A DNA stretch of 20,818 nt from positions 103,886 through 124,703 of the IMG/VR virus record IMGVR_UViG_3300042900_000713; one strand, 5' to 3'. The translations under genes and the position numbers were made by a program. The DNA is from a virus (Duplodnaviria > Heunggongvirae > Uroviricota > Caudoviricetes). This document shows positions 4,073 to 18,600 of the stretch, one piece after another (positions within the stretch are counted from its first letter, which is position 1; each line of letters begins with the position of its first letter). Below the pieces are notes generated by a model. It did no database searches. It was not told where the DNA came from and worked only from the letters and a program-made list of their open reading frames with translations.

Positions 4073-5245
4073 TTAGGGGTCAGGTTGATATTGAATTGCT
4101 ATAGTATGATAACCTCCAGCAATAGATTTCCAATTGTTACCACCAAGTAGTGTAGTGACTGGAGTATTTCTTTGTGTAATATCATTGACTCCTAATTGTC
4201 CATAAACATTACGACCCCAAGTCCATAGAGTTCCATCAGTCTTAATTGCTATGGTATGAAAAAATCCACTCGCAATAGATTTCCAATTGTTACCACCAAG
4301 TAGTGTGGTGACTGGAGTGCTTCTATGTGTGGTATCATTTACACCTAATGCTCCATAAGAATTACGACCCCAAGTCCATAGAGTTCCATCAGTCTTAATT
4401 GCTATGGTATGAAAACCTTTACCAGCAATAGATTTCCAATTGGTTCCACCAAGTAGTGTGGTGACTGGAGTGCTTCTAGATGTAGTATTATTTACACCTA
4501 GTTGTCCATTATCATTACTACCCCAATTCCATAAAGTCCCATCAGTATTAAGTGCTATAGTATGATAATATCCACCAGCAATAGATTTCCAATTGGTTCC
4601 ACCAAGTAGTGTGGTGACTGGAGTGCTTCTAGATGTAGTATTATTTACACCTAGTTGTCCATTATCATTATAACCCCAAGACCATAGAGTTCCATCAGTC
4701 TTAAGTGCTATGGTATGATAAAATCCACCAGTAATAGATTTCCAATTGTTACCACCAAGTAGTGTAGTGACTGGAGTGCTTCTTCGTGTAGTATCATTTA
4801 CACCTAGTTGTCCAAAAAGATTAGAACCCCAAGACCATAGAGTTCCATCAGTCTTAAGTGCTATCGTATGATAACCTCCACAAGCAATAGATTTCCAATT
4901 GTTACCACCAAGTAGCGTAGTGACTGGAGTGCTTCTATGTGTATTATCATTTACACCTAGTTGTACACTATTATTACCACCCCAAGACCATAGAGTTTCA
5001 TCAGTTTTAAGTGCTACTGTATGAGATTTTCCACTCGCAATAGATTTCCAATTGTTACCACCAAGTAGCGTAGTGACTGGAGTGCTTCTATATGTGGTAT
5101 CATTTACTCCTAATTGTCCATAAAAATTAAGACCCCAAGACCATAATGCAGGTTGTCTAAAAGTTTCTGCCGGAACAAAGACATCATAAAAATTATAAAC
5201 TACTCCGTTCTCTGTAAAACTATAATTAATATCGTCTGCGGGCAT
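4073..5245 (-). CDS. RCC1/BLIP-II-like 7-repeat beta-propeller protein C (390 aa)
   Basis: Seven 51-aa repeats LWSWGxNxxGQLGVN...TPVTTLLGGxNWKSIAGGxxHTIALKTDGT after a unique 33-aa leader. SD-like AAGGA upstream. Confidence 0.92.
   Translation of the reverse strand: MPADDINYSFTENGVVYNFYDVFVPAETFRQPALWSWGLNFYGQLGVNDTTYRSTPVTTLLGGNNWKSIASGKSHTVALKTDETLWSWGGNNSVQLGVNDNTHRSTPVTTLLGGNNWKSIACGGYHTIALKTDGTLWSWGSNLFGQLGVNDTTRRSTPVTTLLGGNNWKSITGGFYHTIALKTDGTLWSWGYNDNGQLGVNNTTSRSTPVTTLLGGTNWKSIAGGYYHTIALNTDGTLWNWGSNDNGQLGVNNTTSRSTPVTTLLGGTNWKSIAGKGFHTIAIKTDGTLWTWGRNSYGALGVNDTTHRSTPVTTLLGGNNWKSIASGFFHTIAIKTDGTLWTWGRNVYGQLGVNDITQRNTPVTTLLGGNNWKSIAGGYHTIAIQYQPDP
4079..5146 (-). repeat. 7 tandem ~153-bp coding repeats (propeller C)
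   Basis: Periodic CCAGTCACYACRCTACTTGGTGG core on the minus strand; last unit is one codon short. Confidence 0.92.
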
Positions 5246-5255
5246 TTTAGGTTCC

Positions 5256-5609
5256 TTACTGTTTTACAAATATTATAGGAGTATTCATTTTTTGACTCCA
5301 GTTTTCAAAATACTCTACTATATTATTATTTATTGATTCTTTAATTGTTTCAATAATTTTGAGATATTGTCCATTCTCATTATTTTCTACAGAAACTAAA
5401 AATCCACACTTATCTGGACGATATTCTTCGTCTATTAATTCTTGAGACCAGGCACAAAAATAATTCTCACAGGATTTTGGTCTTACTTTATGAACATCAC
5501 ATTTATTCTCACATAAAAATCTACAAGACTTTCCATTTCCAAACTCCCATCCATAAGCATCACCAGTCAACCAAGTGCAACAAACAGTGCAACCATTACA
5601 GTCTTTCAT
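5256..5609 (-). CDS. YkgJ/CxxCxxCC-family cysteine-cluster protein (putative Zn or Fe-S binding, 117 aa)
   Basis: CNGCTVCC...CRFLCENKCDVHKVRPKSCENYFC matches the CxxCxxCC...CxFL...CxxxxxRPxxCxxxxC pattern. Confidence 0.78.
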   Translation of the reverse strand: MKDCNGCTVCCTWLTGDAYGWEFGNGKSCRFLCENKCDVHKVRPKSCENYFCAWSQELIDEEYRPDKCGFLVSVENNENGQYLKIIETIKESINNNIVEYFENWSQKMNTPIIFVKQ

Positions 5610-6292
5610 TCAATATAATCCTCTTCTTTAAAATAATGATTCACTAAATCTATCTCACCATTATGTAGTCTTGAAGAGAAATTTTCATCCCATACTTTCA
5701 AAGATTTTACTTTATATTTTCCACCACTTCCAATCCAGAATTCTCTATCCAGTCTATATCCAGTTTCCAGATACTTATCATTTAGTTTGTTAATATAAGA
5801 AGCATTTGCCCACCAGAAGTTTCCAGGATAATGTCCAATATTATCTACATTTTTTGTAATCTCTCCATTCTCCCAAATCGTATCTCCCAAAATCAACCAA
5901 GTCTGCCCCACACAATCATAAGTATTCAAATATTCTACACATTCTTTCCATCTATCAATCACAAAGTATTCCATCATTAATCTCCAAGATTGTGATTCTA
6001 ATGTATTTTTAGAAGATCCTTTAGTATGAAAATATAGAATCTTATAGTCTGAATTTTCCTTACAAAAATCTCTTAAAGAAATCAAAGTTTCAGTCTCTTC
6101 GTTCCAGTTGGTATTTCTTTTAATTACTGCTTTTTCAGGAACATTAAAAAGTTCTTGGTCTCCATTTATCCCAAAATGAATATAATCTGATTCTTTAATT
6201 AATCCAGAAGCATATAATCTATGCAATTGAGATTGATAAATGAATGCTCCCAATCCTATTTGTGCGATATGATAGAAAATTGCAATCTTCAT
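5606..6292 (-). CDS. Hypothetical protein with YFHTKG / HYPGNFWWA motifs, possibly glycan-modifying (228 aa)
   Basis: Clean ORF with ATGA overlaps at both ends; motifs ILYFHTKG, WRLMMEYF, YDCVG, GNFWWANASYINKL, REFWIG. Function inferred from context only. Confidence 0.75.
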   Translation of the reverse strand: MKIAIFYHIAQIGLGAFIYQSQLHRLYASGLIKESDYIHFGINGDQELFNVPEKAVIKRNTNWNEETETLISLRDFCKENSDYKILYFHTKGSSKNTLESQSWRLMMEYFVIDRWKECVEYLNTYDCVGQTWLILGDTIWENGEITKNVDNIGHYPGNFWWANASYINKLNDKYLETGYRLDREFWIGSGGKYKVKSLKVWDENFSSRLHNGEIDLVNHYFKEEDYIE

Positions 6293-7074
6293 ATTGAATA
6301 ATTTGCGGTCTCCATTCCTTTATTTACATTTAATCCTAGATTTGGAATAGATATAATTCTTTCTTTATTTAAAAATCTATAGAGTGCGTGTTCAATATCA
6401 TTTCCTGTAGTATACTGTATCATTTTTTCCAAATATACGAAACTTCTTTCTAATGCTTCTATCGTCTCATTAAATAACATTTTATCAAAAGACCATAACC
6501 CAGTCACCATCATTCCTTCTGCCTGATATAGATAGGCATAAATATTTTCCAAATTATCAGTATTCATACTTTCTATTTCTTTATTTAAATAACTATAAGT
6601 CTTTGCGATGTAATAGTTTTCTAATAATTTACTTTCATAATCTTTAATTTCAAAATATTCATTTAAAGTATATCTTCCAGTTAATTTAAAAATTCTAGTT
6701 ACATCAGTAAAGAGTTGCTTATCTTTCATTAGATACAAACAGTTTAATATACCTCTGGTTTCTAGTAGTGACTTACCAAAAGTAATGAGTTCTGGTTTTT
6801 GTGAGAAATTTTCATAAAGAGTTTCAATTCCAGGTTCATTATAAAATTCTAAAAATAAATCTGATTTCTCCTGAAGAATTGATTTATATTCACTTGAGAT
6901 TGATTTATAAGAACATTCAAATAAACAAATATAAGCATTTGGAACTTTGGTTCTTATGGATTCAATTGTATCTAAAGTTTGAAAAAATCTTTGCTCTGTA
7001 TTATAACGACTATAATTCTTTTCGGCAAAATGCTCTAGTGAAGAACCAACTAGAAATAAAAATTTATAATCCAT
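6289..7074 (-). CDS. Hypothetical protein (261 aa), possible glycosyltransferase-like
   Basis: Clean ORF overlapping both neighbours; motifs EQRFFQTLDTIESIRTKVP, LFECS, RIFKLTGRYTLN, IEHALY. Function unassigned. Confidence 0.72.
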   Translation of the reverse strand: MDYKFLFLVGSSLEHFAEKNYSRYNTEQRFFQTLDTIESIRTKVPNAYICLFECSYKSISSEYKSILQEKSDLFLEFYNEPGIETLYENFSQKPELITFGKSLLETRGILNCLYLMKDKQLFTDVTRIFKLTGRYTLNEYFEIKDYESKLLENYYIAKTYSYLNKEIESMNTDNLENIYAYLYQAEGMMVTGLWSFDKMLFNETIEALERSFVYLEKMIQYTTGNDIEHALYRFLNKERIISIPNLGLNVNKGMETANYSI

Positions 7075-8404
7075 TTAAAAACTCTCTCAATTGTTGTAAC
7101 GGTGCATCCCAGTTTCTGGGTTTCTTTTGACGAAATAGATGAACATTATCACCATACCACCAAGATTTTCCTGTTGAACTAGTCCAGGCATAATACTCCA
7201 TAATAGGAACAAAGACACATACTTCTTTACCCATAGAAGATGCAATATGAGCGATTGATGTGCAAGAAGTAATCACCAAGTCCATTTGATTTATAATAGA
7301 AAAAGTATCAGCAAATTCTCTATTTTTTGAATGAAATTCTTTGATGTTTCTTTTACAAGAATCTGGAACAGGAGTATCACTCATTTGTAAGGAATAAAGT
7401 GAATATTCAGGTTTGCCTAATACATTAAACAAATTAAAGAAATCTACACTTCTAAAATGTGCCTGTTCAAATCCAGAATCAGAATTCCAGAACATTCCAA
7501 TTTTATACTTTGTGTCTTTTTGAATATAAGAATATTGCTTTTCCTTCTCTGGTAATGGATTAAGATATGGTTCTTGACCTAAATCTTGCACTGAAAGTTG
7601 AAGATAATATGGAAGAGCAAGGGCATAAACCCAACAAGAGTTATCTGGATATTCTGGTTTATCCCAGACACAAACACTTTCAAAACCATTATAATTGAAA
7701 ATATCTGCTAAATGTTTTCTAGTGGTTGCCCATATAGGTCTCATTCCAAGTTCTTTCAGGTTCTTCATAAACCGAATATGCATAATTTCATCACCAGCAC
7801 CACAATTCGCATCAATCACAATTGTCTGATTTGGAGTAATTCTACCATTCCATTTTTGAAAAGGCAATTTAATATTCTTATATGCAGTCTTTTCTGTTTC
7901 TATGAGAAAGTGTTCAAGTGCCTTTGGTAAATCATCTTTATGAAAATAATAACCCGAAAGATTGTGATGAACCTTCTTTTCTATTTCCTCTGGTAAATCG
8001 TTTCTCTTTGAAAGATTAAAAAGTAACTTATGTGCCTTATCTAATTGTCCAAGTTGTGAATATGATGAGGTTTCTTCAAATAAAAGTTCTGGGTCATTTG
8101 GAGTGATTTTCTTACACTTTTCAATTTGAGTAATTGCTTTCTCTGGATAATTAAATTGATTATAAGCATTAATAAGATTTTTAGAAGTAATATATTTTTC
8201 TTCTGTGGTTGTTGCCTTATGAAGTGTCTTTTCTCCATATTCTATTGCTTTTGGAAGATTTTTAAGTTCAAAGAATATTTTTGATATTTCATCATATTGT
8301 GAAAATAGTTCTGCTCTTTTTCCAAATGCTTCTAATAATTCATAAGTAAGTTGTTTTTCATTAAACGAATATAAGGTTTTGGAGACCAATTCAAGAGGAT
8401 TCAT
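7064..8404 (-). CDS. TPR-repeat protein fused to a GT9/heptosyltransferase-like GT-B domain (446 aa)
   Basis: TPR helices (LPKAIEYGEK, YPEKAITQIEKCKKITPNDPEL, YSQLGQLDKAHKLL). GT9-like motifs CGAGDEIMHIRF, KIGMFW, LYSLQ, MDLVITSCTSIAHIASSMGKEV, WWYGDNVHLFRQKKPRNW. Confidence 0.82.
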   Translation of the reverse strand: MNPLELVSKTLYSFNEKQLTYELLEAFGKRAELFSQYDEISKIFFELKNLPKAIEYGEKTLHKATTTEEKYITSKNLINAYNQFNYPEKAITQIEKCKKITPNDPELLFEETSSYSQLGQLDKAHKLLFNLSKRNDLPEEIEKKVHHNLSGYYFHKDDLPKALEHFLIETEKTAYKNIKLPFQKWNGRITPNQTIVIDANCGAGDEIMHIRFMKNLKELGMRPIWATTRKHLADIFNYNGFESVCVWDKPEYPDNSCWVYALALPYYLQLSVQDLGQEPYLNPLPEKEKQYSYIQKDTKYKIGMFWNSDSGFEQAHFRSVDFFNLFNVLGKPEYSLYSLQMSDTPVPDSCKRNIKEFHSKNREFADTFSIINQMDLVITSCTSIAHIASSMGKEVCVFVPIMEYYAWTSSTGKSWWYGDNVHLFRQKKPRNWDAPLQQLREFLNGL

Positions 8405-8426
8405 ATAAAAATAATATATTTAAAAG

Positions 8427-8433
8427 TATTTAG
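8427..8433 (-). promoter_or_regulatory. Possible T4-like late promoter core (CTAAATA) overlapping the stop codon of propeller B; second TAAATA at 8417-8422
   Basis: Minus strand ATC TAA ATA CTTTTAAATATATTATTTTT ATG. Resembles the T4 late consensus TATAAATA. The AT-rich background makes chance matches likely. Confidence 0.3.
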
Positions 8434-9653
8434 ATGTAATCTACAGATTGAATTGCTATTGTATGAAAACCTCCACCAGCAATAGATGTCCAATTGGTTC
8501 CACCAAGTAGTGTGGTGACTGGAGTTCTTCTAGGGGTAAGATCATTTACTCCTAATGCTCCATAACCATTAGCACCCCAAGACCATAAAGTTCCATCAGT
8601 CTTAAGTGCTATTGTATGATAACCTCCACAAGCAATAGATTTCCAATTGGTTCCACCAAGTAGTGTAGTGACTGGAGTGAATTTAGTTGCATTATTATTT
8701 ACACCTAGTTGTCCAAAATCATTATAACCCCAAGACCATAAAGTTCCATCAGTCTTAAGTGCTATGGTATAAGAAAGCCCACCCGCAATAGATTTCCAAT
8801 TGGTTCCACCAAGTAGTGTAGTGACTGGAGTGCTTCTATTTGTAGTATCATTTACTCCTAGTCGTCCATAAGAATTATAACCCCAAGACCATAAAGTTCC
8901 ATCAGTCTTAAGTGCTATTGTATGATAATATCCACCAGCAATAGATTTCCAATTGGTTCCACCAAGTAGTGTAGTGACTGGAGTGCTTCTATGTGTAGTA
9001 TCATTTACTCCTAGTTGTCCAAAATTATTACGACCCCAAGACCATAGAGTTCCATCAGTCTTAAGTGCTATGGTATGATAACCTCCACAAGCAATAGATT
9101 TCCAATTGGTTCCACCAAGTAGTGTGGTGACTGGTGTAAATATACCTGTTCTAGTATCATTTACTCCTAATGCTCCATAATTATTAGCACCCCAAGACCA
9201 TAGAGTTCCATCAGTCTTAAGTGCTATGGTATGATATTGTCCACCCGCAATAGATTTCCAATTGTTACCACCAAGTAGTGTAGTGACTGGAGTTCTTCTA
9301 GTTGTAGGATCATTTGCACCTAATGCTCCATAATCATTATTACCCCAAATCCATAAAGTTCCATCAGTCTTAAGTGCTATGGTATGATATTGTCCACCAT
9401 CAATAGATTTCCAATTTGTTCCACCAAGTAGTGTGGTGACTGGAGTGCTTCTATTTGTAGTATTATTTACTCCTAGTTGTCCATTAACATTATAACCCCA
9501 AGACCATAAGGAAGGAGTAACTGATAATCCAGAATTACCGAGTGAATCTAAAATAGGACCATAGACCTCTAAAAGATAGTCTTTACTGACTAACTTTTTA
9601 CCTAAATCTACACCATCACTGTCTTTAAAATTAGTTGTTGGTTGGTAAGGCAT
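8430..9653 (-). CDS. RCC1/BLIP-II-like 7-repeat beta-propeller protein B (407 aa)
   Basis: Seven repeats of the same 51-aa unit (repeat 3 is 52 aa) after a unique 48-aa leader MPYQPTTNFKDSDGVDLGKKLVSKDY... Confidence 0.92.
   Translation of the reverse strand: MPYQPTTNFKDSDGVDLGKKLVSKDYLLEVYGPILDSLGNSGLSVTPSLWSWGYNVNGQLGVNNTTNRSTPVTTLLGGTNWKSIDGGQYHTIALKTDGTLWIWGNNDYGALGANDPTTRRTPVTTLLGGNNWKSIAGGQYHTIALKTDGTLWSWGANNYGALGVNDTRTGIFTPVTTLLGGTNWKSIACGGYHTIALKTDGTLWSWGRNNFGQLGVNDTTHRSTPVTTLLGGTNWKSIAGGYYHTIALKTDGTLWSWGYNSYGRLGVNDTTNRSTPVTTLLGGTNWKSIAGGLSYTIALKTDGTLWSWGYNDFGQLGVNNNATKFTPVTTLLGGTNWKSIACGGYHTIALKTDGTLWSWGANGYGALGVNDLTPRRTPVTTLLGGTNWTSIAGGGFHTIAIQSVDYI
8436..9509 (-). repeat. 7 tandem ~153-bp coding repeats (propeller B)
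   Basis: Same nucleotide core as in propellers A and C. Confidence 0.92.
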
Positions 9654-10308
9654 TAGGTGTCTCTACTATTTGAGGTTCTCTTAAAATTATATTATAAACT
9701 TCTTCACCAGTGGTACAAGCATCAATTTCTTGAAGTTTTTGATACTCCCAATCAAATGCTTCTTGAACTTTTAAATCAATCTGTGAAATAATATATTCAA
9801 GTTCTGTAGTTGTAATTTGCAACCAAACATCATTACCAAATTTAAAGTTATGAGGTCCTGGAGAAGCAATCAATTTACTCATATAAACTAATCTATTCTC
9901 ACGACTAGTTGAAACTGAAATAGTAGTTCCATTTAGTTCAATTTCAATATTGATATTTTCCTTTTCTTTACGAACTGGGGATACCTGTTGCTTATATTCA
10001 TATTTGATTGTTTCTAATGCCTTATTATAAACTGGATAAGTCATTTCAACTCTTATTGGAATATTATTTTCTTTTATAATTTCCCATTCAAAGTTTCCTA
10101 GACTCTGATATCTTGAATCGTGTTCTGGAATAATTTGAACTACAGAAAGAAGATAAGTATTCTCATCAATTTGTAGAGGTATATTCTCATAATCTCTTGG
10201 AGTAACTTTGCCTTCAACTTCAAGTTCTTCTAGTTCGGCATTAATTAATCGGTAATTATAACCAATTGGTCCTAAAATCAGTTGAGAATCGTGAATAAGT
10301 GAGTACAT
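9631..10308 (-). CDS. DUF4376-like / tail-fibre-assembly-like protein (225 aa)
   Basis: C-terminal half RKEKEN...VSTSRENR...FKFGNDVWLQITTTELEYIISQIDLKVQEAFDWEYQKLQEIDACTTGEEV resembles DUF4376 helical domains that accompany phage fibre genes. Confidence 0.65.
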   Translation of the reverse strand: MYSLIHDSQLILGPIGYNYRLINAELEELEVEGKVTPRDYENIPLQIDENTYLLSVVQIIPEHDSRYQSLGNFEWEIIKENNIPIRVEMTYPVYNKALETIKYEYKQQVSPVRKEKENINIEIELNGTTISVSTSRENRLVYMSKLIASPGPHNFKFGNDVWLQITTTELEYIISQIDLKVQEAFDWEYQKLQEIDACTTGEEVYNIILREPQIVETPNALPTNN

Positions 10309-10321
10309 ATTGTTTTATAAT

Positions 10322-10328
10322 TATTTAG
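10322..10328 (-). promoter_or_regulatory. Possible T4-like late promoter core (CTAAATA) overlapping the stop codon of propeller A
   Basis: Minus strand TCC TAA ATA ATTATAAAACAAT ATG; same arrangement as after propeller B. Confidence 0.3.
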
Positions 10329-11503
10329 GAGAAATCTACTGACTGTCCTGCTGTGAGTGCTACTGTATAATAAGATCCACCAGCAATAGATTTCCAATTG
10401 TTACCACCAAGTAGTGTAGTGACTGGAGTGCTTCTATATGTAGTATCATTCACTCCTAGTTGACCATTACCATTATACCCCCAAGACCATAAAGTTCCAT
10501 CAGTCTTAAGTGCTACCGTATGAACACCTCCACCAGCAATAGATTTCCAATTATTACCACCAAGTAGTGTAGTGACTGGAGTGCTTCTATTTGTAGTATC
10601 ATTTACTCCTAGTTGTACAGAAGTATTAAGACCCCAAGACCATAGAGTTCCATCAGTCTTAAGTGCTATGGTATGATAAGATCCACAATCAATAGATTTC
10701 CAATTGTTACCACCAAGTAGTGTAGTGACTGGAGTGCTTCTAAATGTAGTATCATTTACACCTAATGGTCCAAAATTATTACTACCCCAAGTCCATAGAG
10801 TTCCATCAGTTTTGAGTGCTACCGTATAATAAAGCCCACCAGCAATAGATTTCCAATTGGTTCCACCAAGTAGTGTGGTGACTGGAGTGCTTCTAGTTGT
10901 AGTATCATTTACACCTAATTGTCCATTATTATTATAACCCCAAGTCCATAGAGTTCCATCAGTCTTGAGTGCTACTGTATGATAATATCCACCAGCAATA
11001 GATTTCCAATTGGTTCCACCAAGTAGTGTAGTGACTGGAGTGCTTCTATGTGTAGTATCATTTACACCTAATGCTCCATAAGTATTACGACCCCAAGACC
11101 ATAAAGTTCCATCAGTCTTAAGTGCTATGGTATGAAAACCTCCACCCGCAATAGATTTCCAATTGTTACCACCAAGTAGTGTAGTGACTGGAGTGCTTCT
11201 ATGTGTAGTATCATTTACACCTAATGGTCCAAAATTATTATAACCCCAAGTCCATAGAGTTCCATCAGTTTTGAGTGCTACCGTATGAACACCTCCACCC
11301 GCAATAGATTTCCAATTATTACCACCAAGTAGTGTAGTGACTGGAGTGCTTCTAAATGTAGTATCATTTACACCTAATTGTCCATTATTATTATAACCCC
11401 AAGACCATAAGGTATCGCCGATATATTGGTCTATTAACTTATAATCAGTTATAAAATAATCTTCAATATCTCCAAATTGGTCAGATAAAAATTGATTAGG
11501 CAT
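10325..11503 (-). CDS. RCC1/BLIP-II-like 7-repeat beta-propeller protein A (392 aa)
   Basis: Seven 51-aa repeats after a unique 31-aa leader; ATG directly abuts the fibre stop (TAAATG). Confidence 0.92.
   Translation of the reverse strand: MPNQFLSDQFGDIEDYFITDYKLIDQYIGDTLWSWGYNNNGQLGVNDTTFRSTPVTTLLGGNNWKSIAGGGVHTVALKTDGTLWTWGYNNFGPLGVNDTTHRSTPVTTLLGGNNWKSIAGGGFHTIALKTDGTLWSWGRNTYGALGVNDTTHRSTPVTTLLGGTNWKSIAGGYYHTVALKTDGTLWTWGYNNNGQLGVNDTTTRSTPVTTLLGGTNWKSIAGGLYYTVALKTDGTLWTWGSNNFGPLGVNDTTFRSTPVTTLLGGNNWKSIDCGSYHTIALKTDGTLWSWGLNTSVQLGVNDTTNRSTPVTTLLGGNNWKSIAGGGVHTVALKTDGTLWSWGYNGNGQLGVNDTTYRSTPVTTLLGGNNWKSIAGGSYYTVALTAGQSVDFS
10340..11410 (-). repeat. 7 tandem 153-bp coding repeats (propeller A)
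   Basis: The first two units start at 11410 and 11257 (153-bp period). Confidence 0.92.
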
Positions 11504-12997
11504 TTAGATTCTCCTCTCTAATTCTTCAATACGAAGTTGTTGTTCTTTAATTGCCTCAATCAATACTCCTATAAGATTTCCATAAGATACTGATTTTGTT
11601 CCATCATCATTAGTCTCAACAACTTCTGGAATAATTTTTTCAATATCTTGAGCAATTACACCAATTGAAGGTTTATCATTATGCTTCCAATCAAATCTTA
11701 CTCCATTAAGTTGTTTAGTGAGTTCAAGTGCATTCTTAATAGGTTCAATATTAGTTTTTCTAGATACATCTGAAAGTGAAGTGAACTGTGTTGCTGATAC
11801 GGTTCCTGTTGATGTAGTAAAGGTAAGTGCGGTAGATGAGGTATAAGCAGTTGAATATGTTCCAACAGTTGTAGCACTCATTGTTGGATATAAAGTTCCA
11901 GATGGAGTATTATTGAGTGTTGCGCCACCACTAAATGTTGTCCATCCAATTCCAGTTACAGTTGATTGAAGAACCTGACCTGTAGTTCCTGATGAATTTG
12001 TTGAGTCATAAATTGACCTTCCAATTCCCACATCACCAATTATAGAAAGAGTTCTTGTTGGATTTGTGGTTCCTACTCCAATATTACCACCATAAGCACC
12101 TAAAGAAATTACTCCACTTGCATCTACATCAATACTTGGAATACCTGAAATATCATTTACAGAGAAGAGGCTTCCAGTTGATAGATTATTTGTAATTGAG
12201 AATAATTGACCCGCACTACCTTCCCAAGATAAGGTGCCGGAGTTTAGAGTATCATAAGGAACAATATCAATTATAGTACCAATTCCAAGTGTACCAGTTG
12301 AAGGATTGAATTGGAGTTTTGTTGAAGAAACGTGAGCAGTTTTGGCAATTCCTGATGTGACCGAAAGAATTCCAACATACCAGTTTGAATTTGTTGTGGT
12401 GTTATCAAATACAGTAAATCCACCATCACTAGAACCTTGAACTCCTTGAACTCCTTGAGCACCTTGGACTCCTTGGGCACCCTGAACTCCTTGAGCACCT
12501 TGGACTCCTTGGGCACCCTGAACTCCTTGAGCACCTTGGACTCCTTGAGCACCTTGGACTCCTTGGGCACCCTGAACTCCTTGAGCACCTACAATTCCTT
12601 GAGCACCCTGGACTCCCTGAAGTGCAGCAGTTGCAATTGGTATCCAACTGACTCCAATACCAGTGGAAATTAATACAGAACTTGCAGTACCTACTTGATT
12701 ATTACTATCCTTTAATCCCCCAGCAATTTTGATATAACTATCAGTCTGCCCTAATGATACTGTTTTATTAGTAAGACCTCGTATTTCTCCACTCTGTTCA
12801 AAAACAATATCTACGTTATTAACACCATCACCAATAAAAATATCACGACTTGTATCACCAAGAGTTAAATCTCCACCCGGATTTGCGATGTTGAGATTTC
12901 CATTATCATCCAACTGAATAGTCGCACTACTAATGCCGGTATTTCCTTGAAAATCTACTAGACCCGATGCGGGTGTTATGATTACATCTTTTGGCAT
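11504..12997 (-). CDS. Collagen-like tail fibre with C-terminal peptidase S74 intramolecular chaperone (497 aa)
   Basis: About 20 G-X-Q triplets; IGVGTTNP motif; S74 signature TSLSDVSRKTNIEPIKNAL...GVIAQDIEKIIPEVV...SVSYGNLIGVLIEAIKEQQLRIEEL. Start moved from the TTG at 13018 to the ATG at 12997, 1 nt after the upstream stop and preceded by GGAGGGGGAG. Confidence 0.88.
   Translation of the reverse strand: MPKDVIITPASGLVDFQGNTGISSATIQLDDNGNLNIANPGGDLTLGDTSRDIFIGDGVNNVDIVFEQSGEIRGLTNKTVSLGQTDSYIKIAGGLKDSNNQVGTASSVLISTGIGVSWIPIATAALQGVQGAQGIVGAQGVQGAQGVQGAQGVQGAQGVQGAQGVQGAQGVQGAQGVQGAQGVQGVQGSSDGGFTVFDNTTTNSNWYVGILSVTSGIAKTAHVSSTKLQFNPSTGTLGIGTIIDIVPYDTLNSGTLSWEGSAGQLFSITNNLSTGSLFSVNDISGIPSIDVDASGVISLGAYGGNIGVGTTNPTRTLSIIGDVGIGRSIYDSTNSSGTTGQVLQSTVTGIGWTTFSGGATLNNTPSGTLYPTMSATTVGTYSTAYTSSTALTFTTSTGTVSATQFTSLSDVSRKTNIEPIKNALELTKQLNGVRFDWKHNDKPSIGVIAQDIEKIIPEVVETNDDGTKSVSYGNLIGVLIEAIKEQQLRIEELERRI
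12434..12620 (-). repeat. 9-bp-period (Gly-X-Gln)n collagen-like repeat in the short fibre
   Basis: GVQGAQ iterations. Confidence 0.92.
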
Positions 12998-12998
12998 T

Positions 12999-15458
12999 TT
13001 AGAAAACTCCCCCTCCAAGTCTTATTTTTCTTTCTGATAGAGAACTTCCAACATTAACAAGTGCTGAATTAGTTTGACTACCATTTATTGTGGCAAATGC
13101 TTGAACGGCGTATGGTTTATCTAATAAAACAGTAATATTTTTCATCCAGCATCCCTCAGAAGAAGTGGCTGAATCTACATGAACACCTATATTTATATAA
13201 CGAGAAAATGCCACTGGAGCAATTGTCAATTCTTTTGTTTCATAAGCACTTGTTGCAGCAGCACTAAACCGAACTGCTTCATTGCCACCAGCCATCCAAG
13301 TGCTGTTTTGACCACCAGAATTTGCTAACTGATTTGGTCCAACTCCAGATATTACATTTCTTTGTTCAAATATTGGATAAGTTCCAGAAAATCCTGGCGC
13401 CAATTTGATTTGTGCTTTTGCTCTTACAGTAACTCCTGCTGGAACAAAAACTGATTCAAACCAACCACTTCCATAATCAGAACCATCTGCAATCCAATAA
13501 ACTCTCCAAGCATCTTCGGCAGAATCCCAAAATCTTACAGAAAGATAAGTTTGTTGATAGATAGCATCATATTCCATATTATGTTCAATAACACTTCCAG
13601 ATGCACCATTATGTCCTCTATCAATATGCCCACCATGAAAACTTCCTCTAACCTGCAGATTATTGGCAGCAGGAGAATAACCACTAACAAACTCAAATAT
13701 AGAATATATTAGAGTGTTATTATTGTATGGATCCATTTCCATACCTCGTCTGTTTCCCGTATGTTTATGTTTATAGTATCCTCTATAAAAACCACTAACA
13801 AAATTAAGGTAGTCGGTTCCATTAGAAATGTAGTGATGAATCCCAACATTACCATCATAGAAGTGAAATCTACCTGCCCTAGTTGAACGAGAAATATAAA
13901 CATAACCAACTTCTGCCCATTCACTTGATCCCTCCAATCTACATCCCCATGCTTCACTAGCAACTCCTATACTATTATAAAGACATAGACCCTCACGATA
14001 CCATAAAGCATATGAAACGTTGAATCTACCTTGAACATGGCAACATCTTATCTGATCATATCTACCATAAATCCAAAATCCCCCCAAATCTCTAGTAGAG
14101 TTTGAACCTGTCATTACAATTCCTTCTAACCAACTATTCTGACTGTGTGCTGGAATAGTATTTGTTAAAGTAACAGGCAAACTCACATTAGATTTCCAAG
14201 TACCGGGTCCAAGATATAATCCCCCTTCTGCTTGCCCTTGACTGCTGCCCGCATACTTCAAATATACATCTTTAAAAATTATTGCTCTGGAGTAATTGGT
14301 GCCACCTGCTTCAATATACACTCCATAATAGTCTGTGTTTGGAGTAACTGGTTCAATAACTACATCTCGTGTTAAACGATTGACTAATGCACCAGAAACT
14401 ACATTATAACCAACGGCAGCAGTAAGTGTAATAATACTTCCAGAAACAGATGAAATTGTGTGTTTATATCTTGGTCCGGGTGTTTCATTTCCATACGCAC
14501 TTTGGGCATAGTCAGTTGATCCTCCTGCCTCACTTCTGGCTTCAATCCAAATATCATCATTTGCAACAAACATATTGGCATTTGCTACAGTAATTGTTGT
14601 TGATGCTGCAAGAGAAGAAACAGTAGTAACAGTAGCACACTTTCTCACTTTGTTATTAATAGTGTGAATCTTATCGGAACCAGTTTCATAAACAGTTAAT
14701 CCCGTAACAGTACCAGTAACAGAACCTGATAGTGTCAGTGTGTGGTTGAGATAATTAATTGCACTAATAGTATGAATATTACGATTTGCACCAGTACCAA
14801 AGATAATTATTTGACCAACACGGAATACTTTTGAATTAACAACAACTAAACTTGTTCCAGAAGCAGAAACAACTGTAGATTCTGGTCCAACAAACTGTCT
14901 AAAATAAACTGTATTAGAATCAATATCGTGAATCCAAAACCCCTCATCTCTTAATGTAGATGCTCCTGCATTTGATGCTTGAGTGGTTGTATTATCAAAT
15001 ATAGCAAACCATTCTCCCACTGCAAAATTTGTAGCAGAAGTAAAAGCAAAACTTGTTGCTCGTTCATTTGCACCAGATGAAAGAGTGGTGGTTGGCATAC
15101 CATCACTACCTTCCATAATAACGCTTGCGCCAGTTTCTCCTTGTCCATAAAGGATATGAGAAGCAGCAGCAGTTCCTCTAAATTGTAACTTATGTCCTGC
15201 TCTTGCGTGATAAGTTCCATTAGTTCTTATTCTTAATCTTCCATTCATTCTCAAGGTGGTTCCTGCACCAACTTGAGTTTGTAAAGTTCCATAGACATCA
15301 CTATCATCAAAACCGTTTGTGACTGGTGTTGAGACATTATAAGTGACTGTATGTCCAGTTGCAATTACAAAACTATCAGCATCAACAGGTGCTACTCCAC
15401 CAACCCAAGTTGCTCCTGCTGAAAAATTACCAGTTGTAGTAGATGTAATAACTGCCAT
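12999..15458 (-). CDS. Large putative virion structural / tailspike-like protein with G8-like N-terminus, repeated beta modules, probable beta-helix and C-terminal jelly-roll-like domain (819 aa)
   Basis: N-terminus TGNFSAGATWVGGVAPVDADSFVIATGHTVTY is G8-like. Three related segments (ATSFAFTSATNFAVGEWFAI; GTSLVVVNSKVFRVGQIIIF; STTITVANANMFVANDDIWI). Gly/Asn/aromatic-rich middle. Located between two fibre genes. Confidence 0.6.
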   Translation of the reverse strand: MAVITSTTTGNFSAGATWVGGVAPVDADSFVIATGHTVTYNVSTPVTNGFDDSDVYGTLQTQVGAGTTLRMNGRLRIRTNGTYHARAGHKLQFRGTAAASHILYGQGETGASVIMEGSDGMPTTTLSSGANERATSFAFTSATNFAVGEWFAIFDNTTTQASNAGASTLRDEGFWIHDIDSNTVYFRQFVGPESTVVSASGTSLVVVNSKVFRVGQIIIFGTGANRNIHTISAINYLNHTLTLSGSVTGTVTGLTVYETGSDKIHTINNKVRKCATVTTVSSLAASTTITVANANMFVANDDIWIEARSEAGGSTDYAQSAYGNETPGPRYKHTISSVSGSIITLTAAVGYNVVSGALVNRLTRDVVIEPVTPNTDYYGVYIEAGGTNYSRAIIFKDVYLKYAGSSQGQAEGGLYLGPGTWKSNVSLPVTLTNTIPAHSQNSWLEGIVMTGSNSTRDLGGFWIYGRYDQIRCCHVQGRFNVSYALWYREGLCLYNSIGVASEAWGCRLEGSSEWAEVGYVYISRSTRAGRFHFYDGNVGIHHYISNGTDYLNFVSGFYRGYYKHKHTGNRRGMEMDPYNNNTLIYSIFEFVSGYSPAANNLQVRGSFHGGHIDRGHNGASGSVIEHNMEYDAIYQQTYLSVRFWDSAEDAWRVYWIADGSDYGSGWFESVFVPAGVTVRAKAQIKLAPGFSGTYPIFEQRNVISGVGPNQLANSGGQNSTWMAGGNEAVRFSAAATSAYETKELTIAPVAFSRYINIGVHVDSATSSEGCWMKNITVLLDKPYAVQAFATINGSQTNSALVNVGSSLSERKIRLGGGVF

Positions 15459-15616: not shown

Positions 15617-18600
15617 TAGAATTCAACCTCTAGTTTTGCTACATCCTTTCTTTCTGCAAATATTGTGTAGTAATAATTCAGTTCACCCTCTTCTTTAGAG
15701 AATATTTCCACAGTATTATTTATTACTCTATTTACTCTTGGTGTTGCACTCTCACCGATTGGAGTGAGATTGACTGTAATTGTTTCTGCATCAACTAATC
15801 CAGTCCAATAATCTGGAAGTTCTATAATAGAACTTTGAGTTCTTCCTCTCACGTAAACACCAAGTTCCGGTCCTTCTAACGAACCATACTGAAGTTTCTT
15901 ACCTTCTTTTGTTGGGTGGTCGATAATGAAGGACTTTGTGGTTGCACCGAAGGAACCGACAACGTGAAGTTTGTATTGAGGATTTGTGGTTCCTATGCCG
16001 ACATTACCTGTTGTTCCTTTAACTAGAATTCCAAGTGATTGATCAGTAAATCCATTTGCTGGTTGAATTCTTATATCACCAATATCATTTCTAATTGTTA
16101 CATTATTTGCCCCACCATCTGTCGTTCTTCCAGAAGAATTAAGGAAAAAGTAAACGCCACCGCCACTTGAAACAAGTTTTAATCCAACATAAGATGCTGC
16201 ACCACTATTTGGATTATTAAATTCACTGAAATGAGAAGCGTTCTGATTTTTAAAAACTACAAGACTGTCACCTGGATTTGTTATTCCAACTCCAAGATTA
16301 CCAGAAACATAAGCACCACCAGTGACTTGAAGTCTTTGTGATGCGGTTCCTGTTGATGTTGCTGCTCCTACAAAAACATTAGCAGAACTTAAAGTATTAG
16401 TAGAAGCATTAAAGGCAAATGCTTGTGCAGTACTTCTTGCCTTTGCTGTTTGATTACTTCCAGTTCCAGCAACCATAACAGGATAAAGTGTTGTGGTTGA
16501 AGTATCATCAGTAGCATTAATAGTTGTGGATGGTCCCCCAGCACCCTGGACTCCTTGAGCACCTTGAACTCCTTGAGCACCTTGAACTCCTTGAGCACCT
16601 TGAACTCCTTGAGCACCCTGGACTCCTTGAGCACCTTGAGCACCTACATTACCAGTTCTTGAAAATTCTACTACTAATGTAGTTCCATTTGTTGGTAAAG
16701 AACCCGAAATGTGTGTTACTGGAATCTTAAAATAACCAGCAGCAGCAGTAACAGCACCAGTAACATTCCATACATTAACAATTGTTCCTACTGAAGATGC
16801 TGAAGTTATGTAAATATAACCTTTTTGAGCATTTGTAGAATCATCCCAAGTATCATACCAAGTGGTTTGAACATTTGAGTTTGAATCATTATTATCAATA
16901 AAAATTTGAGATACACTTCCTATAGTGGCATTATTATAAGCAATAACACCATTACCTGGATCTGCATCTGTAGTAGTGGTATTAAATGTATAAGGTACTC
17001 CACCTCTATTTCCTACAACTCCTTGAGCACCCTGGACTCCTTGAGCACCCTGGACTCCTTGAGCACCTTGAACACCTTGGGCACCCTGGAATCCTTGAGC
17101 ACCTTGAACACCTTGAGCACCTTGTGCTCCTTGACGACCTTGTGCACCTTGAGCACCTACATCACCTTGTCTTCCTTGAGCACCCTGGAATCCTTGAGCA
17201 CCCTGGAATCCTTGAGCACCCTGGACTCCTTGAGCACCTTGGACTCCTTGAGCACCTTGGAATCCTTGAGCACCCTGGACACCTTGAGAACCTGTTGCAC
17301 CTTGGATTCCTTGAGCACCCTGAACTCCTTGAGCACCTTGTGCACCTTGAGCACCTTGAGCACCTGTAGCACCCTGGATTCCTTGTGCTCCCTGAACTCC
17401 TTGAGCACCTTGAGCACCTTGAACACCTTGAGCACCTTGAGGACCTTGTAGTGCTGCTGTTGCTATTGATTCCCACTTAACACCAGAACCAGTAGAAAGT
17501 AATACAGAACTTGCAGTACCTACTTGATTATTAGAATCATAAAGACCAGCACGAAGTCTTATATCTCCATTTACATCAAGTTGTCTTGTTGCATTTGTGG
17601 TTCCAATACCAACAGAACCGGAAACATAAGCGCCGCCAGATACTTGTAAATTTTGTGAAGAAGTTCCTGTTGTTATTGAAGTTCCAACAACAACAACACC
17701 TTTACTCGGACTTAAAAAAGTATTACCATCATTTAAATTAATTATTATAGAATTATGTTCTATAGTAGTTCCTATAGACCTACCCTTTACTACAAATGAA
17801 TTGCCATCACCAAATCCACCGGGTCTAGTATCTAATCTAAAAATACCTCCAACTCGCCCGGTTTCAATACCTATTATTTGTGATACATTAATTCCATAAG
17901 ATAAAATTTCACCATTTACTTCTGTAAATAAAGCAGACGTAATTGTCCCAAGTCCACTAAAAATAATGCCACCATCTGTTGATGGAGTTCCTTCAGTAAT
18001 ATCTCCTATTTTTATATCACAGTCAGTATCTAAGATATGAAGTCTTGATGTTGGATTTGTGGTTCCAATGCCAACTCTTTGATTTACCGCATCATATACA
18101 AAGTTAGTTGCGCCGGCAGATACATTATTATTGTTAAAAATAACTTGAGAGTTGGAACCTGCTATTGGTCCTATGAGACCTTGAGCACCCTGGATTCCTT
18201 GTGCTCCCTGAACTCCTTGAGCACCCTGAGCACCTTGAACACCCTGGACACCTTGAGCACCTTGAGCACCCTGCACACCCTGGAATCCTTGTGCACCCTG
18301 AACACCCTGGAAACCCTGAGTACCTACTGCACCTTGAACTCCTTGTGCACCTTGAGCACCAACAGCACCTTGAATACCTTGAGCACCCTGAATGCCTTGA
18401 GCACCTTGTACACCTTGAGAACCTGTTGCACCTTGTGCTCCCTGGACTCCTTGAGCACCCTGGAATCCTTGAGCACCTTGAGCACCTTGGACTCCTTGAA
18501 CTCCTTGAGCACCTTGAACTCCTTGTGCTCCCTGGACTCCTTGAGCACCCTGGAATCCTTGTGCACCTTGGACTCCTTGAGCACCTTGGGCACCTTGACG

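Follow-up and report, generated by a model that had tools for sequence, protein, structure and literature searches.

Concerted RCC1-type propellers with a fast-changing, predicted single face: candidate host-recognition modules of an uncultured T4-like cyanophage

Three genes in a 20,818-nucleotide stretch of the IMG/VR virus record IMGVR_UViG_3300042900_000713 (positions 103,886 to 124,703; this whole stretch is called the window below) encode paralogous, stand-alone, seven-bladed propellers of the RCC1 type, here named A, B and C. Their scaffold evolves in concert within and between the genes, and each blade varies strongly at six residues, which modelling and homology place on one face of the propeller. 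The window forms the final 20.8 kb of a 124.7-kb viral contig (completeness estimate 58%); its source is an uncultured freshwater T4-like cyanophage, the genes lie in the late tail-fibre module, and among cultured phages Synechococcus phage S-SRM01 comes nearest. A, B and C are probably carried by the virion as accessory modules for host recognition, acting as adhesins or as receptor-binding heads. To the explanation as a whole, propellers that share a recombining pool of blades and serve as host-recognition modules with a fast-changing face, we assign a probability of roughly 0.6. The original prediction, a reading of the window's letters alone, had described a library of 21 RCC1-like blades and proposed an antibody-like receptor-binding repertoire. 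The three genes are:

RCC1_C: 10325-11503, minus strand; stand-alone seven-bladed RCC1-like propeller of 392 amino acids (aa), with a 31-aa gene-specific leader, blades C1 (11258-11410) to C7 (10340-10492) and the conserved tail ALTAGQSVDFS; Pfam PF25390 at E=1.7e-137 and PF00415 in 7 stretches.
RCC1_B: 8430-9653, minus strand; 407 aa, with a 48-aa leader and blades B1 (9357-9509) to B7 (8436-8588); PF25390 at E=7e-90 and PF00415 in 7 stretches; orthologue of S-SRM01 gp337 by synteny and leader.
RCC1_A: 4073-5245, minus strand; 390 aa, with a 33-aa leader and blades A1 (4994-5146) to A7 (4076-4228); PF25390 at E=4e-98 and PF00415 in 7 stretches; orthologue of S-SRM01 gp344.

The repeat architecture is as the original prediction had counted it: A, B and C each hold seven units, 21 in total, spaced by 51 aa throughout except for B3, which has 52 aa owing to a one-residue insertion in its NDT..TP loop. 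Tandem Repeats Finder returned three arrays (period 153 bp, 6.9 copies, 86-88% matches, no indels), and a Pfam RCC1 search of the 124.7-kb contig found exactly 21 repeats, all within the three genes. In each gene the end of the final unit is truncated or diverged. The stretch TPVTTLLGG, described beforehand as identical everywhere and largely so at synonymous sites too, is exact in 21/21 units; its codons CCA, GTC, CTA, CTT and GGT are unchanged in all 21, ACT in 20 and ACA in 19. When units are numbered from LWSWG, per-column entropy picks out columns 6, 8, 9, 20, 41 and 42, the same half-dozen positions with the same residue sets as had been listed before. The three residues after WG, X1, X2 and X3, take Y/R/S/L/A/G/N, N/D/S/V/G/T/F/L and Y/N/F/S, respectively; the residue preceding RSTP takes 10 types, and the two preceding HT take 7 and 5. 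Columns 3, 11, 17, 32, 39 and 45 vary moderately. Each propeller thus has about 42 hypervariable residues, rich in Tyr, Asn, Ser, Phe and Gly, and the strands and the opposite face are nearly invariant.

Assignment of the fold, already given as a seven-bladed RCC1 propeller in the original prediction, is backed alike by Pfam, AlphaFold2 and Foldseek. PF25390 scored 302-459 bits for the three proteins against a cut-off of 150, and a Pfam scan of A, B and C found no domain besides RCC1. For C, an AlphaFold2 model based on 37 family members reached a predicted local distance difference test value (pLDDT) of 89.3 and a predicted template modelling score (pTM) of 0.87. It comprises 29 strands, that is 7 x 4 plus an N-terminal strand (residues 30-36) that closes the ring; residues 1-25 are of low confidence, and the leaders have pLDDT <50. 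The best Foldseek match of C was UVR8, with a template modelling (TM) score of 0.83-0.88, a root-mean-square deviation of 1.5 Å and 32% identity. The RCC1-like domains (RLDs) of HERC2 and HERC1 and RCC1 itself followed as the next solved matches, and TM scores across UVR8, HERC2 and RCC1 were 0.83-0.92. The earlier comparison with BLIP-II proved loose, the closest solved structures being UVR8, HERC2 and RCC1. The PHROG label 'regulator of chromosome condensation' carried by A, B and C is a name transfer only; to our knowledge, Ran is absent from bacteria.

In the strand map of the C model the hypervariable columns are confined to the D-A and B-C loops: columns 6, 8 and 9 directly follow strand D, column 20 directly precedes strand A, and columns 41-42 lie between B and C. 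Propeller topology places the invariant TLLGGxNW and KTDGT loops on the opposite face. In a sequence alignment with UVR8, column 6 corresponds to W94 and W250, column 8 to D96 and E43, column 9 to F97 and D44, column 20 to D107, and columns 41-42 to the W-R of GWRHT (W285/R286 and equivalents). These UVR8 residues are the tryptophans and salt-bridge residues of its dimer interface (PMC8748919). Because of the propeller topology together with this alignment, all six columns are predicted to lie on a single 'top' face, which favours the original prediction.

Concerted evolution of the scaffold is seen directly. Inside the window genome its nucleotide identity is 0.906 between blades of the same gene and 0.898 between genes; orthologous blades of other genomes share 0.82-0.88 with it (S-SRM01 0.70) and are not closer than non-orthologous ones. 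All blades of a genome carry genome-specific residues, KSI in the window, KSV in the relative L075, and FAGG, KQV and TAAI in S-SRM01. Exact tracts are shared over 97 nt by A4 and A5 and over 90 nt by B4 and C3, the latter spanning two loop patches including the loop codons. The single interchangeable blade that the original prediction had supposed finds its counterpart in this concerted evolution and in the exact tracts common to different genes. S-SRM01 has the same gene order as the window (fibre, RCC1 gp335, a 214-aa protein, RCC1 gp337, TPR, small genes, RCC1 gp344, sulfotransferase), and the leaders of gp335, gp337 and gp344 match those of C, B and A. As the three genes predate the split from S-SRM01, the frozen scaffold results from continuing homogenisation over about 7.4 kb on top of structural constraint. 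The word 'frozen' used by the original prediction thus holds, but its cause is largely recombinational homogenisation and not structural constraint alone.

Some observations on individual relatives concern the same blades. In L079 (genes at 10001-11173, 11840-13057 and 16919-18094) whole loop cassettes recur across genes: GINNLSDRS in B2, B5, A3 and A6, ACGGNCTIAIKTDGT in C2, B6 and A5, and FNTQ...NNNAQRN in C4 and C7; blade C3 of this genome carries the FAGG scaffold motif of the S-SRM01 type. In the S-SRM01 orthologue of C, gp335 (L074 6710-7744, 344 aa), no more than six blades can be recognised; the propeller family thus varies in blade number.

The loops behave differently from the scaffold. 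Within the window genome the proportion of non-synonymous differences (pN) at the six columns is 0.53 (rate dN 0.91), against a synonymous proportion (pS) of 0.19 (dS 0.22) at the remaining columns. Nucleotide diversity of the hypervariable codons is 0.60, 0.64 and 0.07 at positions 1, 2 and 3, compared with 0.13 at scaffold position 3. Between orthologous blades the ratio of hypervariable dN to scaffold dS is 1.4-4.4 and scaffold dN/dS is 0.11-0.46, all of these being pairwise counts on recombining repeats. An excess of non-synonymous change at the variable columns is hence found both within the genome and between orthologues. Among 14 C orthologues, leaders are 0.84 and tails 0.88 identical and the loop sets differ; across five syntenic relatives the loop identity of orthologous blades is 0.10-0.21, equal to that of non-orthologous blades, so that related strains bear different loop sets on the same scaffold. 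Judged from these substitution patterns, the loops appear to be under diversifying selection, with cassettes also moved by conversion.

The pattern extends well beyond this genome. Four closer syntenic metagenome relatives (L075, L077, L079 and L081) have neighbouring genes of 67-88% aa identity and RCC1 genes of 70-82%, the latter taken from the best tblastn match, which is not always the syntenic orthologue. A scan of viral contigs gave 65 loci with relatives at identities of up to 62%, among which 37 have at least two separate 6-8-blade genes and 14 have proteins of 13-42 blades. In the 39 loci with enough units the mean between-blade identity is 0.45-0.79 and the six most variable columns are the same as in the window; in these columns Y accounts for 18%, N for 17%, S for 13% and G for 7%, and K, E, M and W are rare. 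A protein search listed more than 7,800 relatives at E<=1e-30, which is a lower bound among the matches listed.

These data can be accommodated by the following scheme. All 21 blades of the genome act as one recombining pool, in which gene conversion within and between A, B and C homogenises the scaffold and shuffles loop cassettes. On the 'top' face of each blade, six hypervariable residues (three after strand D's WG, one before strand A and two before HT) appear to be the target of selection, and amino-acid-changing substitutions at loop codon positions 1-2 are fixed far faster than silent change, with gene-specific leaders and tails kept conserved. The propellers would be made together with the S74 tail fibre and a chaperone of the DUF4376 type, each would dock via its own leader, and the binding faces might track changing host surface structures over evolutionary time.

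The link to the fibre comes first from the gene cluster, which agrees with the tail-fibre operon context of the original prediction: an S74 fibre gene abuts C, and a DUF4376 homologue follows C. Every substantial open reading frame (ORF) of the window is on the minus strand and tightly packed. Transcription would run from a very large protein through an 819-aa protein, the 504-aa tail fibre, C, a 225-aa protein, B, a TPR protein with three small unknown proteins and A, to a sulfotransferase-like gene and lastly a methyltransferase/glycosyltransferase gene. The genes around the propellers are:

Tail-fibre protein: 11504-13018, minus strand; 504 aa, collagen-like GVQGAQ run and C-terminal Peptidase_S74 intramolecular chaperone domain (Pfam Peptidase_S74 E=3.6e-15, Collagen E=2.1e-9; many PHROG tail-fibre families match).
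DUF4376-family protein: 9631-10308, minus strand; 225 aa, starting 16 nt past the end of C and overlapping the start of B by 23 nt.
TPR and GT9-like protein: 7064-8404, minus strand; Pfam TPR matches, GT9 likeness from Atlas features only.
Unknown 261-aa protein: 6289-7074, minus strand; between B and A.
DUF8361 protein, 228 aa: 5606-6292, minus strand; between B and A.
Cys-rich 117-aa protein: 5256-5609, minus strand; between B and A.

The stop codon of the tail-fibre gene abuts the start codon of C, and the S74 fibre gene of relatives overlaps the C start by 8 nt. The assignment of the 225-aa protein to DUF4376 comes from its orthologues, 10 of 11 aligned ones matching PF14301 (best E=4.1e-11), and from its nearest Atlas clusters, which are DUF4376; the window's own copy stays below threshold (E=0.13, 13 bits against a cut-off of 25). 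The gene lies between RCC1 genes in about 12 distinct related phages, duplicate contigs counted once, and has the same position in S-SRM01. Two DUF4376 proteins of Alteromonas phages, V22 gp27 and A5 gp9, are described as chaperones of the tail fibre whose genes directly follow that of the fibre (PMC7289586, PMC10579305), and the 225-aa gene occupies the position that such a rule (PMC7289586) predicts, immediately downstream of C. A model of the DUF4376 protein had pLDDT 90 and gave no PDB match at E<=0.001; a complex prediction of C with it scored 0.00, a value with no bearing either way on binding.

Relatives of A, B and C furnish a second link. One 2461-aa protein (L015:2616-9998) combines an N-terminal domain, four collagen-like runs, four seven-bladed propellers of the A/B/C family and a C-terminal S74 domain that is 51% identical to that of the window fibre. 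RCC1-like propellers also lie inside annotated tail-fibre proteins of Pseudomonas phages Littlefix and PollyC. In virions of phage phAPEC6, mass spectrometry detected six products of about 30-42 kDa named 'DNA condensation protein' (PMC7247149), which we take to be its RCC1-like proteins. The fibre context, the chaperone homologue, the L015 fusion, the Littlefix and PollyC fibres and the phAPEC6 virions together make a virion-borne, fibre-associated binding role the most likely one.

Several points weigh against a host-recognition role or against parts of it. The virion location and receptor binding of A, B and C are deduced from context, fusions and distant relatives. The collagen/S74 fusion occurs in one phage lineage only (L015/L016) among the 65 loci, and the phAPEC6 proteins and the Littlefix and PollyC fibres are distant relatives of 23-31% identity. 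In the leaders of A, B and C, neither a signal peptide nor a known domain for fibre attachment was recognised. The placement of the six columns on one face rests on topology and UVR8 homology, and the dN/dS values come from pairwise counts and not from a recombination-aware site model, with hypervariable columns near saturation. Finally, the phAPEC6 authors proposed a DNA-condensing inner-body role for their proteins (PMC7247149).

This last proposal leads to the alternative that survives best, namely that the propellers bind partners, but not as receptor-binding heads: they could be intracellular host-protein binders for takeover or anti-defence, with the variable face tracking variable cytoplasmic targets of the host, or packaged internal virion proteins. 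Cellular RCC1-like domains are cytoplasmic interaction platforms, and UVR8, HERC2, RCC1 and RPGR are the top structural matches here. No secretion or attachment signal is recognised in A, B and C, and the virion mass spectrometry behind the internal DNA-ordering role favoured by the phAPEC6 authors gives no position in the particle. We nevertheless think this alternative unlikely, as the genes are tightly packed behind the S74 fibre gene and around the DUF4376 homologue in conserved synteny, propellers of the same family are covalently part of the L015 collagen/S74 fibre, and loops of Y/N/S/G/F with few K/E and rapid turnover between strains are typical of host-surface arms races.

A second alternative is that the propellers belong mainly to a glycan-decoration system, either as the repeated substrate of the co-encoded enzymes (TPR-GT9-like, sulfotransferase and methyltransferase/glycosyltransferase) or as glycan-holding lectins, the cluster being one decorated-adhesin unit. 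The order in which enzyme genes alternate with the three RCC1 genes is indeed the same in all relatives, S-SRM01 included, and the four genes between B and A (5256-8404), whose order is kept in L075, L077, L079, L081, L082 and S-SRM01, may encode enzymes that modify the propellers. The C-terminal half of the TPR protein (TPR446) resembles GT9 glycosyltransferases, a likeness from Atlas features only; the protein had no sequence relative among solved structures except designed TPRs. The repeats of two adhesins, AIDA-I and TibA, are substrates of GT9-related heptosyltransferases. A Ser/Thr-rich loop, NDTTxRSTPVTT, is conserved in every blade of the window; 17/21 of these blades, and 65% of 935 units from other phages, contain an N-x-S/T motif, which is not universal. 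A role as substrate does not explain a hypervariable face under positive selection, and decoration would for this reason complement an adhesin role more than replace it; as the main function of the propellers we judge it improbable.

Both ideas may be joined, tentatively, in a germ-line combinatorial binder system: leaders would be address tags for each propeller's own fibre or baseplate site, the pool of 21 blades would try loop cassettes across heads, and every blade would be decorated at its conserved Ser/Thr/N-x-T loop by the TPR-GT9-like, sulfotransferase and methyltransferase enzymes. This joint reading is possible, and we would not yet expect it to hold in full. Were it true, the propeller family, which numbers more than 7,800 members at E<=1e-30, would offer phages a natural scaffold of consensus design for generating binding specificities, with a logic comparable to the variable lymphocyte receptors (VLRs) of lampreys or the NOD-like receptor (NLR) repeats of fungi.

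The codons of the loops raise the question of how their diversity arises. Loop codons in the window are of the form NNT (N, any base) in 120/125 cases, and four- or six-fold codons at the six columns end in T in 46/47 cases, whereas genome codon usage would give 20.5±3.3. The Arg codon is CGT at loop columns and AGA in the scaffold; Leu is CTT in the former and CTA or TTA in the latter. The T-ending bias ranges from 27/39 to 67/68 in five relatives, among them S-SRM01 with 40/47, and is only moderate in more distant phages. Targeted mutagenesis, whether through a diversity-generating retroelement (DGR) or through some other mechanism that acts on AAT-type codons, would account for such features, since almost all-NNT codons match the codon design of DGR variable regions, bases 1-2 are nearly saturated, and residues that need a third-position purine (K, E, M, W) are rare. 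The lack of a reverse transcriptase, the identity of the strain and of protein C across samples, and the weaker bias in distant phages speak against it, and we regard it as very improbable. A DGR in particular was rejected on three grounds: PF00078 had no match (E<=0.1) in the 124.7-kb contig and none in the complete 240.8-kb S-SRM01 genome; scaffold AAT codons at columns 7, 15 and 33 are invariant in 21/21 units, the scaffold adenines being fixed; and synonymous variation occurs at non-A sites, e.g. CTA/TTA, GGT/GGA and ACT/ACC. Our own reading of the NNT bias is fast amino-acid turnover among pyrimidine-ending codon boxes in an AT-rich genome.

The same strain was found in three other samples with 100%, 99.995% and 99.93% identity over about 13-20 kb, and protein C is identical on at least 21 contigs. 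Contigs of this strain showed no loop variants, only one odd 20-bp patch. The absence of a reverse transcriptase together with a strain that is clonal across samples indicates evolutionary turnover and not hypermutation. Of the 'antibody-like repertoire', the diversified face is therefore retained, but population-level or somatic hypervariation is not, and the term stands as an analogy only. The odd patch lies at window positions 4542-4561 (gene A, blade 4, aa 229-235), where L083 (15258-15277) has 11 mismatches in 20 bp on a contig otherwise 99.99% identical. In L083 it reads as the reverse complement of the TLLGGTN scaffold motif and turns TIALNTD into LVPPSSV; it is either a repeat assembly artefact or a template-switch (quasi-palindrome) mutation.

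Least credible of all is that the variable columns are unconstrained surface positions drifting neutrally on recently duplicated repeats, with no binding function: beta-propeller loops do tolerate substitution, and unconstrained sites would stand out on young or homogenised repeats, but drift predicts equal change at the three codon positions and none faster than at silent sites, it can yield neither the contrast of positions 1-2 with position 3 nor the dN excess of the loops, as diversifying selection can, and all six columns fall on one face and recur in 39 loci with a biased Y/N/S/G composition.

The design has parallels in other systems. The WD40 repeats of the Podospora anserina HNWD family (het-d, het-e and het-r) are marked by 'high internal conservation' (Paoletti, Saupe & Clavé 2007, PMC1805685; Chevanne et al. 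2010, PMC2873952). As portrayed there, near-identical beta-propeller repeats undergo concerted evolution within and between paralogous genes, and few positions per repeat are positively selected and cluster on the interaction face, as in the phage genes. The differences are that the fold here is RCC1 and not WD40, that the phage proteins are stand-alone, of about 40 kDa and without NACHT/NLR parts, that six sites per 51-aa blade vary instead of four per 42-aa repeat, that repeat-induced point mutation (RIP) is absent here, that a virus is compared with a fungus, and that the presumed target is a host surface and not an allorecognition partner. By analogy, the phage propellers would work like the HNWD family, not being members of it.

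With the RLDs of UVR8, HERC2, RCC1 and RPGR the phage proteins share the same seven-bladed propeller (TM 0.83-0.92, 25-33% identity), and the dimerisation surface of UVR8 corresponds residue for residue to the phage variable columns. In the cellular proteins, however, blades have diverged and partners are fixed; the Trp pyramid and the GWRHT motif of UVR8 are not conserved in the phage propellers, and no guanine nucleotide exchange or photoreceptor function is implied. RCC1-like proteins of Rak2-like jumbo phages (11 copies in phAPEC6; PMC7247149) likewise form sets of propeller paralogues of about 40 kDa, several of them in virions. They are distant (related jumbo Erwinia phages match part of the query at about 30% identity), and genes of the phAPEC6 type lie at genome ends, whereas those of the window lie behind a fibre gene. 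We found no published analysis of hypervariable faces or concerted evolution in these jumbo-phage proteins.

Known ways of diversifying phage receptor-binding proteins are the DGR-diversified Mtd of Bordetella phage BPP-1 and the hypervariable segments of the T4-type adhesins gp37/gp38. Like these, the propellers vary on a small, putative ligand-binding surface of a presumably fibre-associated protein with a conserved scaffold, and their NNT loop codons resemble the AAY design of DGR targets. They differ in that a reverse transcriptase and a template repeat are absent from the contig and from the S-SRM01 genome, that mutation, selection and recombination between repeats would generate the diversity over evolutionary time, and that the fold is an RCC1 propeller and not a C-type lectin or gp38-type adhesin. 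BLIP-II, a beta-lactamase inhibitor, is a seven-bladed propeller of the RCC1 superfamily and binds its partner via loops on one face; it is secreted by Streptomyces, its specificity is fixed and its repeats are not homogenised, and it was neither among the 50 best PDB fold matches nor in the sequence search of solved structures. In the literature on RCC1 together with cyanophage, tail fibre or receptor-binding protein we found no paper on this design for phage RCC1 proteins, and the S-SRM01 paper mentions neither RCC1 nor virion proteomics.

If the propellers are host-recognition heads, T4-like cyanophages and many aquatic phages would have, next to DGRs and fibre-tip mosaicism, a third means of retargeting adsorption, made of a repeat scaffold kept uniform by recombination and a small, quickly rewritten face. 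It would help explain the evolution of host range in freshwater cyanobacterial blooms and would make sense of the thousands of proteins that now carry the label 'regulator of chromosome condensation'. A consensus propeller scaffold with 42 naturally tolerated variable positions could also serve binder design. As S-SRM01, the nearest relative, is in culture, the host-recognition hypothesis is directly testable.

A few observations on the surroundings of the propellers may be added. Comparison of the fibre upstream of C (11504-13018) with L075, L077, L079 and L081 showed only its C-terminal S74 part to be conserved (25-39% of its length), and the 819-aa protein upstream of the fibre had no match in these four; fibre shafts are thus exchanged among phages that keep the RCC1/enzyme cluster. 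Megablast against cultured phages matched only two fibre fragments of about 90 nt. The T4-type late-promoter motif TATAAATA has two copies in the window, not above chance, one of them at 13190-13197 (minus strand) inside the 819-aa gene and about 170 nt upstream of the fibre gene start; sigma-70 and terminator scans of the window gave nothing delimiting the RCC1 genes. A 105-aa alternative-frame ORF at 12271-12588 (minus strand) with KEFRVPKESKVL periodicity merely arises from the DNA repeat behind the collagen-like GVQGAQ run of the fibre gene and does not represent a gene of its own.

Giant proteins made almost purely of RCC1 blades also occur among the relatives. L057:3770-12322 encodes 42 blades in 2851 aa and L022:2639-6862 encodes 26 blades in 1408 aa, and a Pfam scan of these two found no other domain, bar a weak DUF5897 match in L022. 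In L064:1-21586, at least 38 blades lie in an open frame of more than 7195 aa.

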